From a virus (lineage: Duplodnaviria > Heunggongvirae > Uroviricota > Caudoviricetes), in IMG/VR virus record IMGVR_UViG_2537562173_000010: a stretch of DNA of 36,398 nucleotides; one strand, written 5' to 3'. Position 1 is the first letter of the stretch, and the number at the start of each line of letters is the position of its first letter. This document shows, piece after piece, positions 10,145-29,559 of this stretch. Position numbers and translations under genes: made by a program. Below the pieces are notes generated by a model. That model was not told the origin of the DNA. It ran no database searches and worked only from the letters and a program-made list of their open reading frames with translations.

Positions 10145-10271
10145 GCGAAAAGTGGACATTAGAGTTACAAAAGCAAGTTTAAATCATCCAAAATATTACA
10201 ATGTCCTTATCTATCTGATATCGTTATGATAAAAAGCTCCTGAATATAATCGATAGTAGGTGGTTATTTCC

Positions 10272-10649
10272 ATGAAATCAATTTTAGAGGTCTTTACTCA
10301 AGGAAATACTAAAGAAAAACTGGCTGTTATCGCCGATCTCACAACCATTGCGGGAATATCGATTGCAACTATTATTGCTGGTTTGTTAACCCTAGTTGCA
10401 AAAACAGATAAACTAGATGTTGGAAATCTGTTTGGAGTTGTCATAATATCTCTGCTCGGATTGGCTGGTGTTTGCTGTTTTGTGGCCTTATTTATTTGGG
10501 TTATAACCCAAATGTCTAAACCATGGGGAACACCTCGGGGGGTTCAGCCCTTAGTTAAGTGTGCTATTTCCCTTATCTTTATCTGTATGTTTTTGCTGGC
10601 TGTCTTTACATTTTATGAGTTTATTTCTTCGATGAGCATACGCTATTGA
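10272..10649 (+). CDS. small integral membrane protein (about 125 aa, 3-4 predicted TM helices)
   Basis: ATG at 10272 with AGGTGG RBS 9 nt upstream (the ORF track starts at GTG 10260). Highly hydrophobic, AT-rich, in the Z/fun position and oriented opposite to the tail genes. Confidence 0.55.
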   Translation: MKSILEVFTQGNTKEKLAVIADLTTIAGISIATIIAGLLTLVAKTDKLDVGNLFGVVIISLLGLAGVCCFVALFIWVITQMSKPWGTPRGVQPLVKCAISLIFICMFLLAVFTFYEFISSMSIRY

Positions 10650-10671
10650 ATATAAAATCAGCCCCCATAAC

Positions 10672-11256
10672 TTAAAAGAGACCTTCTATATCGACTTCAA
10701 TGCCCAAATAACGGACTGTGCTTTCCAGTTTCTTATGGCCCAACAGAAGTTGGATCACCCGGAGACTCTTGGTTTTCTTGTAGATTAAGTAAGGTTTTGT
10801 TCTTCTCATGGAATGTGTGCTGTACAGCGAATCTTCGAGACCAAGCTTTTCTACCCACCCATGAAAAATTCGGTTGTATTGCCGGGTTGATATATGGTGG
10901 GTAGTTCCGACCCGAGAGCGGAACAGGAAGCCTTTACTATGCCAGTTGCCGAGCTTTATCAATGCAGTAACCGCTTCCCTTGTCCCTTTGGTTATCTCAA
11001 ATTGGACAGGGCTGCCGGTTTTCTGTTGCAACACCGTTGCTCTGCTTGAGACAGAACTGCCATATGCAGCATCTGATACTTTGAGTTTGACCAAATCACA
11101 GCCCCGTAGCTTAGTGTCCAAAGCCATGTTGAACAGAGCTAGATCGCGTGTTTTACCTTCCAACTCAAGTCTAATCCGGATCCCCCAGATATGAAATATC
11201 TGAAGTGGCCTTTTTTGACCGATGGTACGGTCTTTATTCCACGGTGACGTTTTCAT
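10672..11256 (-). CDS. small tyrosine recombinase, FimB/FimE-like (catalytic domain only, about 194 aa)
   Basis: Tyrosine-recombinase boxes: TKLRGCDLVKLKVSD (box I Arg), HSMRRT (H-x-x-R), LLGHKKLESTVRYLGIE (catalytic RY). No N-terminal core-binding domain. Start taken at internal Met MKTSPWNK with GGAG RBS; the ORF track's 228-aa extension is rejected. Confidence 0.75.
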   Translation of the reverse strand: MKTSPWNKDRTIGQKRPLQIFHIWGIRIRLELEGKTRDLALFNMALDTKLRGCDLVKLKVSDAAYGSSVSSRATVLQQKTGSPVQFEITKGTREAVTALIKLGNWHSKGFLFRSRVGTTHHISTRQYNRIFHGWVEKLGLEDSLYSTHSMRRTKPYLIYKKTKSLRVIQLLLGHKKLESTVRYLGIEVDIEGLF

Positions 11257-11362
11257 ATTCAAATCTCCTGCAATGTGGGAGATTTGAGTATGGTTGTCTC
11301 TCAAGAGCGAAAATAAGTCAACTATCACTAGTTGTTGCGCATGTACGTATTCTGTCAATTAA

Positions 11363-12205
11363 TTATTGACAATCATCAATTCTGGAATGATCAAAATCAT
11401 CATATCGAATTATAGTCTGGTTGACTGTATCTATTGTTGGTGTCATTTCTGTTATAATATCCTGATAACCTAAAGAGTTAAATACATTTACTAAGGCCTC
11501 ACACCGAAGGGCCGTAGCAATTACAAAATTATAAATTGCCAGCCGTTTATTTTCTTGTTTAACTGCAAGAATGAATTCGATAGCAGTATTTTCATCACTT
11601 TGGATTGCATTATATAGAGATACTATATTTACCATATCATCAGAGAATGTATGTATTGAATCACAAAGGGGAACGTAATGGGCATGATAGTGTGTTTCCC
11701 AGCCAATTAATTCAAAAAGTCTTCTGGTTCCTGGATATTCAGGTGTATTTGGCCACAATCTATTAAATAGATCAGTTAGTTCTTTTCCCATGCGAATCCT
11801 TTCATTTGCTGCTGGATTAGTCATTCCTTTGGATTTTAAACACTCCAGCCACCGTTTTCCATTACTATGAACTAATTTCTTACTAGCCTTGAGTAATGCT
11901 TGTGCATTTTCGCCATCATCTATTGCTATATAAAATTGATTGGCAGCCTGTTCTATTATAACCCTAGCTAATACTTCCGATGCTGAAAAGGCTCCTATAT
12001 TCAAAGAAGAGATAGCCTGATTACTAAGTTCATTCAGTACATTAAAGTACTGTAAGACCATCAATTTTTGTTCCACACCCTTTAGGTTGTCTATTTTATT
12101 TTTATGCTCCTCAAATTTTGCATGGATATATTTATTTATCGCGGCTATTTTTTTTACATCTTCGTCAAGATCAAACGGGCAACGTCCAAACAATTCTTTT
12201 TTCAT
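11363..12205 (-). CDS. hypothetical protein (280 aa), AT-rich cargo
   Basis: ORF with strong RBS (AGGAGA 6 nt upstream of the ATG). Very AT-rich. No P-loop or nuclease motif I recognise. Co-oriented with and 106 bp upstream of the recombinase gene. Confidence 0.65.
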   Translation of the reverse strand: MKKELFGRCPFDLDEDVKKIAAINKYIHAKFEEHKNKIDNLKGVEQKLMVLQYFNVLNELSNQAISSLNIGAFSASEVLARVIIEQAANQFYIAIDDGENAQALLKASKKLVHSNGKRWLECLKSKGMTNPAANERIRMGKELTDLFNRLWPNTPEYPGTRRLFELIGWETHYHAHYVPLCDSIHTFSDDMVNIVSLYNAIQSDENTAIEFILAVKQENKRLAIYNFVIATALRCEALVNVFNSLGYQDIITEMTPTIDTVNQTIIRYDDFDHSRIDDCQ

Positions 12206-17333: not shown

Positions 17334-17681
17334 TCAACTCACAGGGATGGTTAACGAAAGTGGCTGGCCGGTGTCGTTGTGCTGACCGGTTAACGTGACC
17401 GTCATTCGCCCGTCAAAACTGCGCTCAGTGGTGACGGATGACAGGGTGACGCGGGGTTCCCATTTCAGCACCGCCATGTAACAGGCGACCTTAATCTGCA
17501 ACTCAAGCGCCGGAGTCTGCGGCTGGTCAATCATTGACGCCAGCAACGAGCCGTAATCACGACGCATCACCCGCGAGCCGACCGGTGTGCGCAGGATATC
17601 GCCGATACTCTGGCTGATATGCTCAAGGTCAGTGACAGTCAGGCCATCACTGCGATTCATTCCGAGATAACGCGCAGTCAT
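17334..17681 (-). CDS. W: baseplate protein W
   Basis: 115 aa, the P2 gpW length. Its ATG overlaps the V stop (ATGA). Confidence 0.85.
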   Translation of the reverse strand: MTARYLGMNRSDGLTVTDLEHISQSIGDILRTPVGSRVMRRDYGSLLASMIDQPQTPALELQIKVACYMAVLKWEPRVTLSSVTTERSFDGRMTVTLTGQHNDTGQPLSLTIPVS

Positions 17682-17904
17682 AGAGGTCCCCCGGTTGTGC
17701 CGCCGCTGTCGCCGGGGTGTTTATGGGTATGCAGTACCTTACCGTTTGATGAGAGTTCACCGCCGGTGTGTTCAATGTTGCCGCGCATCGTCCCGCCCTT
17801 CTGCACTTCCAGCGTGCGTTAAGGTCGGTTTCGACGATAATGCCGGTGCGGATCATGTTGCGCAGTGCGCGCGCGAGTTCCTGAATATTTGCGAGAGTGT
17901 TCAT
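17678..17904 (-). pseudogene. V: baseplate spike protein V, internally deleted and frameshifted
   Basis: Only 227 nt between the V ATG (17902-17904) and the V stop (17678-17680), against about 636 nt expected. The first 30 codons are V-like (MNTLANIQELARALRNMIRTGIIVETDLNA). The last 44 codons, in another frame, read RTLEVQKGGTMRGNIEHTGGELSSNGKVLHTHKHPGDSGGTTGGPL. The frames differ by 1 at about 17815-17820. Confidence 0.7.
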
Positions 17905-24171: not shown

Positions 24172-24344
24172 TGTCAGGAGTCCTGAATAGTGATTAGAGG
24201 AGTCACATGTCGGCATCAGTTTCCCGACGATGCGCATCCTCCGCCATCAGTCCCGGATGGCTTATCACTGACACAACAGCACCTTAGCGAATCGCAGGGC
24301 GCGACTCAGTAGCCTTGCCGTGTATTCATCACGGCGAGGTATTC

Positions 24345-25786
24345 ATGACCATCACCACAGACACCACTCTTTTACACGACCCGCGTCGTCAGGCGGCGCT
24401 GCTGTACTGGCAGGGATTTTCCGTGCCGCAGATTGCCGCCATGTTGCAGATGAAACGCCCGACAGTGCAGAGCTGGAAACAGCGCGACGGCTGGGACAAC
24501 GTTGCCCCCATCAGCCGTGTCGAAATGAGCCTGGAAGCGCGGCTGACCCAGCTCATCATCAAACCGCAGAAAACCGGCGGGGGGTTCAAGGAAATTGACC
24601 TGCTGGGACGCCAGATTGAACGACTGGCACGGGTAAATCGTTACAGCCAGACCGGCAACGAGGCAGACCTTAATCCGAACGTCGCTAACCGCAACAAAGG
24701 CGGGCGGCGCAAACCGAAAAAAAATTTTTTCAGTGACGAGGCCATCGAAAAGCTGGAGCAGATTTTCTTTGAGCAGTCTTTCGACTATCAGTTGCACTGG
24801 TATCGCGCCGGGCTTGAGCACCGCATCCGCGATATCCTGAAATCCCGCCAGATTGGCGCGACGTTTTATTTTTCCCGCGAGGCGCTGCTGCGCGCCCTGA
24901 AAACCGGCCATAACCAGATTTTTCTGTCGGCCAGTAAAACGCAGGCGTATGTGTTCCGCGAATACATCATCGCCTTTGCCCGGCTGGTTGACGTTGACCT
25001 GACCGGTGACCCGATTGTCCTGGGCAATAACGGCGCAAAACTGATTTTTCTCGGCACCAACTCCAACACCGCACAGAGCCATAACGGCGACCTGTACGTC
25101 GACGAGATTTTCTGGATCCCGAATTTTCAGGTACTGCGTAAGGTGGCATCAGGTATGGCCTCACAGAGTCACCTGCGCTCGACCTATTTCTCCACCCCGT
25201 CCACGCTGGCGCACGACGCCTACCCGTTCTGGTCAGGTGAACTGTTCAACCGGGGACGCGCCAGCGCCGCCGAACGCGTGGAAATCGACGTCAGTCATAA
25301 CGCCCTTGCCGGTGGGCTTCTCTGTGCGGACGGCCAGTGGCGGCAGATTGTCACCATTGAGGACGCCCTGAAAGGTGGCTGCACGCTGTTCGACATTGAA
25401 CAGCTCAAACGCGAAAACAGCGCCGACGATTTTAAAAACCTGTTCATGTGTGAATTTGTTGACGACAAGGCGTCGGTGTTCCCGTTCGAGGAGCTGCAAC
25501 GCTGCATGGTCGACACGCTGGAAGAATGGGAAGACTATGCGCCGTTTGCCGCCAATCCGTTCGGCTCCCGCCCGGTCTGGATTGGTTACGACCCGTCACA
25601 CCGTGGCGACAGCGCCGGATGAAGACCATGACCAGCAGCGGACGCAGCGCCACTTATGAGGCCAGCCGCAGCGAGGAAGCCAGCCACGCCGACCTCGCCT
25701 GGGCGACCATGCACGCCCTGTTAAATGAGCCACTCACCGCCGGTATCAGCACCCCGCTGACATCCACCATTCTGGAGTTTTACTGA
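24345..25786 (+). pseudogene. P: terminase large (ATPase) subunit P, internally deleted and frameshifted
   Basis: ATG 24345 (GAGG RBS) to the stop overlapping the Q start spans only 1442 nt, against about 1770 expected for 590-aa gpP. Reading frame breaks at about 25620 (...YDPSHRGDSAG*), and the C-terminal ...KTMTSSGRSATYEASRSEEASHADLAWATMHALLNEPLTAGISTPLTSTILEFY is in another frame. Confidence 0.65.
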
Positions 25787-26820
25787 TGAGCAAGAAAAAA
25801 GGGAAAACACCGCAACCTGCGGCAAAAAAAATGACCGCCAGCGCCCCGAAAATGGAGGCATTCACCTTTGGTGAGCCGGTGCCGGTACTCGACCGCCGTG
25901 ACATTCTGGATTACGTCGAGTGCATCAGTAACGGCAGATGGTATGAGCCGCCGGTCAGCTTTACCGGTCTGGCGAAAAGCCTGCGTGCTGCCGTGCATCA
26001 CAGCTCACCGATTTACGTTAAACGCAATATTCTGGCCTCGACATTTATCCCGCATCCGTGGCTTTCGCAACAGGATTTCAGCCGCTTTGTGCTGGATTTT
26101 CTGGTGTTCGGTAATGCGTTTCTGGAAAAGCGTTACAGCACCACCGGTAAGATCATCAGACTGGAAACCTCACCGGCAAAATATACCCGCCGTGGCGTGG
26201 AGGAGGATGTTTACTGGTGGGTGCCGTCCTTCAACGAGCCGACACCTTTCGCGCCCGGTTCCGTGTTTCACCTGCTGGAGCCGGATATTAATCAGGAGCT
26301 GTACGGCCTGCCGGAATATCTCAGCGCCCTTAACTCTGCCTGGCTGAATGAGTCGGCCACGCTGTTCCGCCGCAAGTATTACGAAAACGGCGCGCATGCC
26401 GGATACATCATGTACGTCACCGATGCCGTGCAGGACCGCAACGATATCGAAATGCTTCGCGAAAACATGGTGAAGTCGAAAGGCCGCAATAACTTTAAAA
26501 ACCTGTTTCTCTATGCCCCACAGGGGAAAGCCGACGGCATTAAAATTATCCCGCTCAGTGAAGTGGCGACGAAGGACGATTTTTTTAATATCAAAAAAGC
26601 CAGCGCCGTTGACCTGCTGGATGCGCACCGCATCCCCTTTCAGTTGATGGGCGGCAAGCCGGAAAACGTCGGGTCTCTGGGTGATATTGAGAAAGTGGCA
26701 AAGGTCTTTGTCCGCAATGAACTTATCCCGCTACAGGACAGGATTCGGGAAATAAACGGCTGGCTCGGTCAGGAGGTCATCCGCTTTAAAAACTACTCAC
26801 TGGACACTGACAACGGCTGA
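25786..26820 (+). CDS. Q: portal protein Q
   Basis: 344 aa, the P2 gpQ length. ATG overlaps the P stop (TGATG). Confidence 0.9.
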   Translation: MSKKKGKTPQPAAKKMTASAPKMEAFTFGEPVPVLDRRDILDYVECISNGRWYEPPVSFTGLAKSLRAAVHHSSPIYVKRNILASTFIPHPWLSQQDFSRFVLDFLVFGNAFLEKRYSTTGKIIRLETSPAKYTRRGVEEDVYWWVPSFNEPTPFAPGSVFHLLEPDINQELYGLPEYLSALNSAWLNESATLFRRKYYENGAHAGYIMYVTDAVQDRNDIEMLRENMVKSKGRNNFKNLFLYAPQGKADGIKIIPLSEVATKDDFFNIKKASAVDLLDAHRIPFQLMGGKPENVGSLGDIEKVAKVFVRNELIPLQDRIREINGWLGQEVIRFKNYSLDTDNG

Positions 26821-26989
26821 ACATCGCCGCCTGCGGGCGGCTTTTTTACACCCCGTCATCACGCCCTCACACGCTCACCACCGCACAAAACACCCCGCAG
26901 ACACACCAGCGCCTCAACGGGCAGACTAAGCGCCGTCACGACGCGCTGAGACGCTGAAAAAATAAAATCAGCACCACCGCCAGCGCGCA

Positions 26990-27008
26990 GTGCTTTCCCC
27001 GCCTCGCC
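26990..27008. other. cos site (19-nt cohesive-end sequence)
   Basis: GTGCTTTCCCCGCCTCGCC is the reverse complement of GGCGAGGCGGGGAAAGCAC, which I recall as the P2/186 cohesive end. It lies about 170 bp past Q, as in P2. Confidence 0.6.
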
Positions 27009-27323
27009 CGCCCGCTTCATGGGGCGGTTTTAATGCAGTTGCATGATGAAACTGAAATCACATCAGCACTGACCGAAACTGACAAAAAGAATAGTATCTG
27101 ACACATGCAAAAACACGCACTTAATATACGCCTATCTATAGCTCCTACAGGATTGTCAAAAAACGACCAACTCGTCATAGCGTAAACACATTTGGCTCAA
27201 CGAACACTTACGTTATATGCCTCTTGAACATATCAAAGTCTTAAGGTAGATCTTTACCACTAAGTGGCTATATTAAGCTGCTTTTTTACATACAATAAAA
27301 GCTTTATCGTATGAGGCATAAAA

Positions 27324-27875
27324 ATGGAACTTAGATTAAAAAATGTTACCAGTTATAAGAAAGACGCCTTCACAATACTGAATCTTGAAAAAAGAGTAAA
27401 CATACTATACGGCCAAAATGGTTGTGGCAAATCTACCATTTCAAATTATTTCTACGACTCTACACACACAGATTATAACGAGTGTGAATGTACCCTTCTT
27501 GACAATTACAAACCTCTTGTTTACAACACTAAATTTATTGAAGATAACTTCTATAATGCACAGGAACAAAAAGGTGTTTTTACATTAAGTAAAGAAAATG
27601 CAGATATTGAAAAACAATTAATTGAAAAAGAAGCAATTAAACAGCAACTCACAGAGCAATATAGACAAAAAAAAGGAGTGTTATTGAAATTAGAAGCAGA
27701 AATGGAAAAAAAAGAAAATGAATACATCGAATCGATCTGGAAAAAAACAGAACCAATCAGAAACTCTGTACTAAAAACCTTAATGAAAGGTAAAGTTGGC
27801 TATAAAAGACCTTTTTTTGAGATGATAAAATCATCCTCACCAATCACCTTTATTAATTTAAATGATATATATTAA
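27324..27875 (+). CDS. N-terminal fragment (183 aa) of a split Rad50/SMC-like ABC ATPase
   Basis: Walker A GQNGCGKST (codons 30-38, 27411-27437), then coiled-coil-like K/E-rich sequence. GAGG RBS 7 nt upstream of the ATG. Ends ...SPITFINLNDIY* inside the 19-bp duplication. AT-rich. Confidence 0.7.
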   Translation: MELRLKNVTSYKKDAFTILNLEKRVNILYGQNGCGKSTISNYFYDSTHTDYNECECTLLDNYKPLVYNTKFIEDNFYNAQEQKGVFTLSKENADIEKQLIEKEAIKQQLTEQYRQKKGVLLKLEAEMEKKENEYIESIWKKTEPIRNSVLKTLMKGKVGYKRPFFEMIKSSSPITFINLNDIY

Positions 27876-27889
27876 TTTAAATGATATAG
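27852..27889 (+). repeat. exact 19-bp tandem duplication at the junction of the two ATPase ORFs
   Basis: ATTAATTTAAATGATATAT (27852-27870) followed by ATTAATTTAAATGATATAG (27871-27889), 18/19 identical. Removing one unit fuses the two ORFs in frame (...SPITF-INLNDIAKEY...). Confidence 0.85.
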
Positions 27890-29559
27890 CAAAAGAATAC
27901 TCTATACTATTAGAAAATAGAAACAATGAAACCGCATTAATAACTCCTTTACATCCATATACCCCATCAATTGATGATGTAAATACATTAGCAACACCTA
28001 TAATAGATACAAGCAATAGCTATTTATCAGAAACCATTAATAAACTTCATAATCTTGACTGGGTAAAAAAAGGTAAAGAACATTATTTAGACGGTTCTAC
28101 ATGTCCGTTTTGTCAGGAAAAAACTATTAGTCACGAATTTTTAAATGCCCTTAAATCAATATTTGACGAAAGTTATTCAAAGAAAGTAAAACAGCTCTCA
28201 GATATAAAGTCAGTTTATGAGAAAAATACCATATATCATTTTAACGAAATACAAAACAATATATCATCATGTGCACTAATCAATGAGAAAGATAAAGAGA
28301 ACATTATTTCCAATATTAAAATATTGCAAAACATTGCAGAAAAAAATTTAATAAACATTATTGATAAGATCAACAATCCATCAACATGCGTTACATTAGA
28401 AATTGATAAAGAACTAGAAAATCATGTTCAGGAAAGCATAGGCGCTGTTAACAAGAAAATAAGAGACATAAATGATAAGGTTAAAAAACTCAAAGAGTAT
28501 GAGAATAAAATCGGAAAACAAGTTTGGGGGGCTCTCCATGCTTTTTGCAGCGATGATTTAGAGAATTTATCCAAACACAAAGAAAAATTCTTTGATATCA
28601 AAAAGAAAGTTCATGATGAATTAAATAATATTGAGCAACAAGGAAAAGAAAATAATCTCACAATAAAAGCATTGCGAGATAAAATATCTAACATTGATTC
28701 TACGATAGACTCAATAAACACCCATTTAAAAAATCTAGGGATCTCTGGTTTTTGTATTGAAAAACATGCAGAAAGAAAAGATATGTACATTATATCTCGA
28801 CCAGGGCATACAAAAAACCAAAATGTTTATAGATCTCTTAGCGAAGGTGAAAAAACACTAATAACGTTTCTTTATTTTTTAGAGTGCTGTAAAGGTAAAA
28901 CCGATAAAAATGATACCGATAGCAGGGATATTTTTATTGTTATTGACGATCCAATATCTAGTCTATCGCAAAACTATGTCTACGACATCGCATCAATTAT
29001 TCATCACCACATTATAAAAAATGAATTAACAAAGAAGGTATTAATCCTTACTCACAATCTTTATTTCTTTCATGAACTTATTAAGCTATCTCCTAAAAGC
29101 AGAGAAGACAAACTATTTAAGAAAAACTATTATCTAGGTAGAGTAACGAAAAATGATTTTAGTATAATTACTGAAATACAAAAAAACAGCATACAGAATG
29201 AATATCAATCTTTGTGGCAAATATTAAAAGATGCAAAAGATGGCAAAGCAAACAAAATCATAATACCGAATATTATGAGAAACATACTAGAATATTATTT
29301 TGCATTTGTTCATAGAACAGATGCTCTACAAGATGAATTAACAAAGTTGGCACGCGACGATAGCAACAGTGATTTCAAAGCATTCTACAGATACATTAAC
29401 AGAGGTTCTCACTCTGATGCGGTAAATATTACTGATATGGGCGACATAGACCCAGATAAATACCTAAAACAATTGAGAACAATATTTTCAGCTACTGGTG
29501 ACGAAATGCATTATTTAAAAATGATGGACGAACTAGAAGAGGAAAACGTTACCGCTTAG
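27862..29559 (+). CDS. C-terminal fragment (565 aa) of the split Rad50/SMC-like ABC ATPase, with a possible HEPN-like C-terminal domain
   Basis: CPFC (28102-28113) within the coiled-coil region; ABC signature-like LSEGEK; Walker B DIFIVIDDP with D-loop SSLS; H-loop LILTHN. The C-terminal 170 aa contain R-x3-E (RNILE) and RYINRGSH. AT-rich. Confidence 0.7.
   Translation: MIYINLNDIAKEYSILLENRNNETALITPLHPYTPSIDDVNTLATPIIDTSNSYLSETINKLHNLDWVKKGKEHYLDGSTCPFCQEKTISHEFLNALKSIFDESYSKKVKQLSDIKSVYEKNTIYHFNEIQNNISSCALINEKDKENIISNIKILQNIAEKNLINIIDKINNPSTCVTLEIDKELENHVQESIGAVNKKIRDINDKVKKLKEYENKIGKQVWGALHAFCSDDLENLSKHKEKFFDIKKKVHDELNNIEQQGKENNLTIKALRDKISNIDSTIDSINTHLKNLGISGFCIEKHAERKDMYIISRPGHTKNQNVYRSLSEGEKTLITFLYFLECCKGKTDKNDTDSRDIFIVIDDPISSLSQNYVYDIASIIHHHIIKNELTKKVLILTHNLYFFHELIKLSPKSREDKLFKKNYYLGRVTKNDFSIITEIQKNSIQNEYQSLWQILKDAKDGKANKIIIPNIMRNILEYYFAFVHRTDALQDELTKLARDDSNSDFKAFYRYINRGSHSDAVNITDMGDIDPDKYLKQLRTIFSATGDEMHYLKMMDELEEENVTA

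Follow-up and report, generated by a model that had tools for sequence, protein, structure and literature searches.

The window analyzed here, a stretch of 36,398 nucleotides of DNA, originates from contig AEYT01000028.1 of Escherichia coli cloneA_i1 and carries a P2-like prophage located between yegQ/ogrK and yegR. Gene P, which encodes the large terminase gpP, is found in P2-type synteny within this prophage, where it is divergent from gene O and is followed by the portal gene Q. As deposited, gene P is a pseudogene, given that an intact orthologue is present in close relatives and that the reading frame here ends at a premature stop codon. The relevant features of the window are as follows.

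24345 to 25622, plus strand: truncated gene P (large terminase), comprising 425 codons and a TGA created by the junction; the product includes the HTH domain, the ATPase domain, and 13 nuclease-domain residues.
25621 to 25622, no strand assigned: deletion junction, where 331 bp present in all relatives are missing; no microhomology.
25619 to 25786, plus strand: 3′ remainder of P, read in the +1 frame; its ATG overlaps the P stop codon, and it has a weak C-terminal match to Terminase_6C.
25786 to 26820, plus strand: gene Q (portal), intact; no differences from SF-468 across 25622 to 27850.
24581 to 24584, no strand assigned: private substitution cluster in P, GGTGAC to GGGGGG (D80G); absent from 5,426 complete E. 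coli genomes.
17678 to 17816, minus strand: remnant of the baseplate spike gene V, with a 409-bp out-of-frame deletion.
27851 to 27888, plus strand: 19-bp tandem duplication, two copies of TATTAATTTAAATGATATA; breaks the AAA_13 (PDC-S06) gene.

The window prophage shares its integration site and gene order with near-identical, intact yegQ-yegR prophages of ST95 E. coli (SF-468, PE144, ATCC 11775, APEC E16002, and others). Unlike the window, these ST95 prophages carry a full-length P gene (1773 nt), a full-length V gene, and an unbroken gene for a 738-aa AAA_13 protein. The whole window aligns with SF-468 in three blocks of 99.8 to 99.98% identity each, whereas with PE144 the outer blocks are 99.99% and 99.87% identical and the middle block is 99.07% identical. 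Between the tail-fibre assembly gene G and the sheath gene FI, which is the position of the Z/fun hotspot, the window carries non-P2 cargo (10260 to 12205) encoding a DUF5677 protein, a short tyrosine-recombinase-like ORF, and a hypothetical protein. The same cargo is present in SF-468 and PE144, and its genes yielded no PADLOC match.

The reading frame of P begins normally with an ATG at 24345, preceded by the sequence GAGG 6 nt upstream. According to both the ORF list and the raw sequence, the plus-strand frame that opens with MTITTDTTLLHDPRRQAALLYWQGF proceeds for 425 codons to a TGA at 25620 to 25622, instead of continuing uninterrupted for the ~590 codons of a P2-type gpP. An earlier sequence-only reading had placed the break at about 25620, and had estimated from an expected length of 590 aa that the P interval is short by about 330 nt. 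Both figures proved accurate. The P2 and P2_4C9 records each contain a contiguous 1773-nt P ORF encoding 590 aa, and global alignment of the window with the P genes of P2, P2_4C9, and the SF-468 prophage yields two blocks separated by one 331-bp gap in the window, positioned exactly at 25621|25622. The alignment with P2 gpP that the sequence-only reading had proposed maps the missing bases to nucleotides 1278 to 1608 of the 1773-nt gene, beginning at the third base of codon 426 and extending through codon 536 (of 590). Shifting the gap by a single base in either direction is not possible, and thus the P junction has 0 bp of microhomology.

Because 331 is equal to 3 × 110 + 1, the P sequence downstream of the junction is in the +1 frame. 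The surviving 3′ end in this frame includes the last 54 codons of P, ending with KTMTSSGRSATYEASRSEEASHADLAWATMHALLNEPLTAGISTPLTSTILEFY and a TGA at 25784 to 25786 that overlaps the ATG of Q, such that the P tail terminates in TGATG at the Q start. The conserved C-terminus therefore does continue in another frame up to a stop overlapping Q, as had been proposed. The premature TGA is generated by the junction sequence itself (GGATG|AAG), which also makes an ATGA stop-start overlap whose ATG, at 25619, shares the frame of the last 54 gpP codons. Termination-reinitiation at this ATGA could maintain translational coupling to Q, but the presence of the overlap is probably a coincidence.

The retained 1,277 nt of P are 98 to 99% identical to those of P2 and P2_4C9, and D80G is the sole difference between the truncated protein and SF-468 gpP over the first 425 residues. 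The stretch from 25622 to 27850, which includes Q, has zero differences from SF-468, and the O-P intergenic region is identical to that of the same prophage. An exact match to the P2 late-promoter dyad TGT-N12-ACA was not found in the O-P intergenic region, and the state of the promoter was therefore judged by the identity of this region to that of intact relatives.

Pfam searches reveal which portions of gpP are retained. The truncated protein keeps the Terminase_5 HTH domain (PF06056; aa 12 to 69, E = 9.5e-28) and the Terminase_6N ATPase domain (PF03237; aa 164 to 386, E = 3.6e-60). The sequences SRQIGAT at position 167 and LYVDE at position 250, which by analogy with T4 gp17 are presumably the Walker A-like and Walker B motifs, are both present. 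In a full-length relative, the Terminase_6C domain (PF17289) matches aa 413 to 571 (E = 3.1e-47). Truncated gpP retains 13 of these ~159 nuclease-domain residues and does not contain a complete RNase H-like Terminase_6C domain. An 86-aa ORF in the next frame (25526 to 25786) matches a weak fragment of Terminase_6C, corresponding to profile positions 126 to 154 (E = 2e-5). By analogy with other RNase H-like terminase nucleases, the relevant acidic residues would be D416 (WIGYDPS), which is kept, D474 (IGIDATG), which is deleted, and D560 (HADLAWA), which is out of frame. A comparison of the gpP sequence with PDB chains for catalytic-residue mapping gave no match at E ≤ 1, and so the loss of the nuclease was deduced from the Pfam domain coordinates. 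By these coordinates, the 331-bp out-of-frame deletion takes out the core of the nuclease domain and would inactivate the large terminase as written. In phage P2, gpP and gpM together form the terminase responsible for cos cleavage and for driving packaging. Should the deletion be real, a nuclease-less gpP would be predicted to be unable to mature DNA.

To establish how widely the truncated arrangement occurs, we searched 50,697 phage records by megablast with a 1,801-nt query (24200 to 26000). At least 80% of this query is covered by 98 phage records, and all 20 of the records listed span 2,132 nt in two pieces, which is 331 nt longer than the query. Likewise, a 300-nt probe centered on the junction matches 1,551 of 5,426 complete E. 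coli genomes. Both flanks are present in 1,522 of these genomes, and are located 331 bp apart in each of the 40 listed. The flanks are joined in 0 of these 60 listed records (40 E. coli genomes and 20 phages). A 50-mer composed of 25 nt from each side of the junction, which is unable to seed on intact copies, has no match in the 5,426 complete E. coli genomes and none in the 50,697 phage records. A junction 32-mer has no match in GTDB representative genomes or JGI metagenome contigs.

The protein look-ups yielded a similar picture. The exact 425-aa gpP is encoded on one public contig, AEYT01000028.1 (GCA_000233675.2), where it is annotated as ‘terminase, ATPase subunit [Escherichia coli cloneA_i1]’, and the version corrected to D80 is found nowhere by exact protein look-up. 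A separately called 52-aa ORF corresponding to the C-terminus of P occurs on 78 other contigs, some of which are genome-length, and many members of its cluster are partial proteins at contig ends. Public drafts also contain many ‘partial’ V proteins (41 to 65 aa) and P-tail proteins (40 to 54 aa) at contig ends. Short-read contigs thus commonly end within the conserved P2 genes V and P, presumably where a genome carries more than one P2-like prophage.

These findings bear directly on two readings in which nothing has been lost from gene P. The sequence-only reading had acknowledged that functional relatives might share the two-frame form, as would be expected if a programmed ribosomal frameshift or a split terminase were a normal feature of such phages. 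All that speaks for this view, and only on the surface, is that the conserved C-terminus goes on in a different frame to a stop that overlaps Q. However, the flanks are 331 bp apart in all 20 listed phages and all 40 listed E. coli genomes, and the junction is absent from the databases searched. Moreover, the missing piece corresponds to residues 426 to 536 of a continuous Terminase_6C match (413 to 571), and no slippery heptamer (X XXY YYZ) is evident at GCCGGATGAAGACC, where the junction reads GCC GGA TGA AGA CC by eye. The programmed arrangement is thereby refuted, and we assign it almost no probability. The length difference could also be viewed from the opposite direction, wherein the window is ancestral and the 331 bp are an insertion in its relatives (an intron, an intein-coding segment, or a mobile element). 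Nothing beyond the difference in length favors this proposal. The segment resides within conserved coding sequence for the nuclease domain, has a length not divisible by 3, and leaves a stop codon behind when it is missing. It is shared by all relatives that were examined, the classical phage P2 among them. The continuity of the domain refutes an insertion, which we consider just as improbable as a programmed frameshift.

Gene P is not the only damaged gene in this prophage. The V lesion that was noted earlier is present in the sequence as a 409-bp out-of-frame deletion at 17815|17816 relative to SF-468, with 2 bp of microhomology. A C-terminal remnant of 42 to 45 aa with Phage_spike and Apex motifs is left, and a 50-mer from the V junction has no match in the 5,426 complete E. 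coli genomes. The missing V segment has a GC content of 62.8% (99.8th percentile), making it the most GC-rich 409-bp stretch of the region. If the P deletion is real and V is also broken, infectious particles would be impossible without a helper.

A third anomaly is a perfect 19-bp tandem duplication (27851 to 27869 and 27870 to 27888) that splits the 738-aa AAA_13 gene (27324 to 29559, plus strand) into ORFs of 183 aa and 565 aa. This gene, with ~29% GC, lies on the cos side of Q, at the position of ‘old’ in P2. Its protein matches the PADLOC candidate single-gene defense system PDC-S06 (E = 1e-254) and has a PrrC-like C-terminus. The gene is present in only 44 of the 5,426 complete genomes, all 44 of which have a single copy of the 19-mer, and the 183-aa and 565-aa split products are found on the cloneA_i1 contig only.

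We also cataloged single-nucleotide differences that are private to the window, using as references SF-468, PE144, and the APEC O1 prophage at pflA, and extending the comparison to the right by 7.25 kb along the same contig. Private substitutions, most of them nonsynonymous, occur at 19 positions, all within the prophage: one at 10901, 11 between 19636 and 22249, three between 24581 and 24584, and four between 30437 and 34334. The 11.3 kb of flanking chromosome contains 0 such sites, the left 17.8 kb of the prophage contains one, and none is located within 1 kb of the P junction. The 23 differences from SF-468 alter 18 codons, about 14 of them nonsynonymously, and include transitions and transversions in approximately equal numbers. 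A homopolymer run of at least three nucleotides is created or extended by 12 of these 23 differences and by 11 of the 19 private substitutions, with nearly all such runs composed of G or C (some of A). For random substitutions the mean is 3.5, and the value of 12 was reached in 0 of 5,000 simulations. Examples include GGTGAC to GGGGGG in P, CCCCACCC to CCCCCCCC in A, and CCCGTAG to CCCCGAG. The two substitution clusters tested are found in no complete E. coli genome (5,426), and the cluster at 24581 to 24584 is a probable base-calling or consensus error. Relaxed selection on a dead prophage would not predict such a spectrum, which resembles errors of base calling or consensus limited to this region.

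The contig is part of a draft assembly of cloneA_i1 generated from paired-end Illumina GAIIx reads, consisting of 79 contigs that were reordered on APEC O1 (Reeves et al. 2011, PMC3203180). Checking by PCR and Sanger sequencing was reported for clone D isolates only and for none of clone A, and the assembler is unnamed (PMC3203180).

Given this body of evidence, we lean modestly toward the interpretation that the P deletion is an assembly artefact, and rank it above a real strain-private deletion. The preference derives from the private nature of the lesions, the error-like substitutions, and the nature of the source, an early, unverified draft built from short reads that has unusually few contigs. 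Adjacent contigs may have been joined across an unassembled gap without Ns, dropping 331 bp from P. The same putative joining process would have lost 409 bp from V, would have failed to trim a 19-bp overlap between contigs that now reads as a tandem duplication, and would also have admitted low-quality consensus bases into the prophage. End-to-end contig joins would explain two dropped segments and one 19-bp overlap, and the three private structural anomalies indeed lie within 10 kb of one another, with 0 to 2 bp of microhomology at each. Furthermore, APEC O1, the closest named relative, carries two P2-like prophages, at pflA and yegQ, that share long stretches with the window prophage, and its pflA prophage is identical to the window prophage type from 24386 to ~33800. 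A two-prophage repeat of this sort, observed here for APEC O1 only, is of the kind that short reads of the era handled badly. As general context, the description of SOAPdenovo2 (PMC3626529) remarks that older gap-closing procedures could select the wrong one of several very similar repeats, and that structural and substitution errors were far more numerous in early versions. Against an artefact are the absence of Ns from the contig, which is continuous, the lack of private substitutions within 1 kb of the P junction, the negative results described below on chimerism, shared stretches, k-mer repeats, and GC content of the P segment, and the natural decay of a P2-like prophage at this locus in APEC O1.

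Several specific routes to an assembly error were evaluated and rejected. The window is not a chimera with a pflA-type prophage, as it is yegQ-type at 150 of 151 informative sites and its private alleles are not pflA-type. The private substitutions do not preferentially overlap the stretches that are identical in both prophage types. A mis-join through a k-mer shared in a de Bruijn graph is not compatible with 0 and 2 bp of homology at the two deletion junctions. Loss of coverage due to GC content suits the V segment (62.8%), but is unconvincing for the P segment (57%, 76th percentile), and the duplication resides in DNA with 29% GC. Attribution to any specific gap-closing program is unsupported, the assembler being unnamed in PMC3203180.

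The principal competing explanation, to which we give somewhat less than an even chance, is that the deletion is real, recent, and private to this strain, having arisen by illegitimate recombination without microhomology, in which case the prophage would be doubly defective for virions (P and V). A late P promoter would then express a 425-aa gpP with an HTH domain and an intact ATPase but no nuclease fold, and neither cos cutting nor the completion of packaging would be expected. The deposited sequence displays the P deletion cleanly, between a promoter region and a Q gene that are identical to those of intact relatives. P2-like prophages decay naturally, as exemplified by the yegQ-yegR copy of APEC O1 that has been heavily rearranged by ISEc12, and the near-neutral ratio of nonsynonymous to synonymous changes would fit relaxed selection on a dead prophage. 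The 52-aa P-tail ORF on 78 other contigs can be counted on the same side, with the qualification that many cluster members are partial at contig ends. However, a real origin would require three independent structural mutations, yet the left 17.8 kb of the prophage has acquired only one private substitution. So many structural changes per point mutation would be far above expectation. Likewise, no model of relaxed selection predicts a spectrum of substitutions that extends homopolymers, and the three lesions are absent from other genomes, in that the junction and protein look-ups match no second isolate or assembly.

The sequence-only reading had concluded that the prophage is decaying. The observations on which this conclusion was founded hold, in that P carries an out-of-frame deletion and V is disrupted, but the decay is not secure because the lesions are private to one draft from 2011. 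The same reading had named sequencing error at the junction as an alternative, and this receives circumstantial support from the private substitutions and the co-occurring lesions.

We also considered whether a real deletion might have been retained as useful. A nuclease-less but ATPase-proficient gpP might act as a prophage-encoded dominant-negative defense, which we regard as highly improbable. Under such a scheme, gpP would be produced solely upon activation of the late promoter by Ogr or delta, supplied by a P2-like phage or P4 satellite entering the cell. Once made, the truncated protein could poison the multimeric motor with which the invader packages its DNA, and the ATGA would keep Q translationally coupled.

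If real, the deletion would be a further example of a prophage packaging gene inactivated in a single strain, and the yegQ-site prophage of this isolate could form no particles. This outcome carries little biological weight, with no implications beyond cloneA_i1. A point of caution is that prophage ‘decay’ observed in a single early short-read draft should not be counted without read-level support, for instance when prophage domestication or rates of pseudogene formation are surveyed. In the present case, three frameshifting lesions and ~19 odd substitutions are confined to one prophage in one assembly.

A comparison with known systems places gene P of the window in a familiar context. The gpP of phage P2 (Peduovirus), with its Terminase_5, Terminase_6N, and Terminase_6C domains, is matched by the window in the HTH domain, the ATPase domain, and the O-P-Q position. 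The window differs from P2 in that it is without nucleotides 1278 to 1608, encodes 425 aa, and has the C-terminal 54 codons out of frame. Natural decay of this phage family at the same locus is represented by the P2-like prophage of APEC O1 at yegQ-yegR and, we presume, by the ogrK remnant of E. coli K-12. The APEC O1 prophage has decayed through insertion or rearrangement involving an IS21-family element and has lost multiple kb, whereas the window prophage is otherwise complete and its lesions are small, blunt, and private. The two APEC O1 prophages, at pflA (909701 to 950331) and at yegQ-yegR (2243000 to 2292000), each have an ISEc12 element (IS21 family) abutting a truncated sheath gene, and the yegQ copy is without most head and tail genes. 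This pattern suggests IS-mediated exchange or inversion between the two prophages of that strain. A two-frame arrangement of a late gene is also known from P2 itself, where a programmed −1 frameshift yields the tail chaperone products E and E+E′. This arrangement is conserved across the family, with relatives annotating GpE as a separate short ORF, whereas that of P results from a deletion and is confined to a single assembly. Gene P of the window is a damaged copy of P2 gpP, and is neither a programmed frameshift nor a new terminase architecture. Whether the damage arose in the cell or in the assembly, it is of an ordinary kind.
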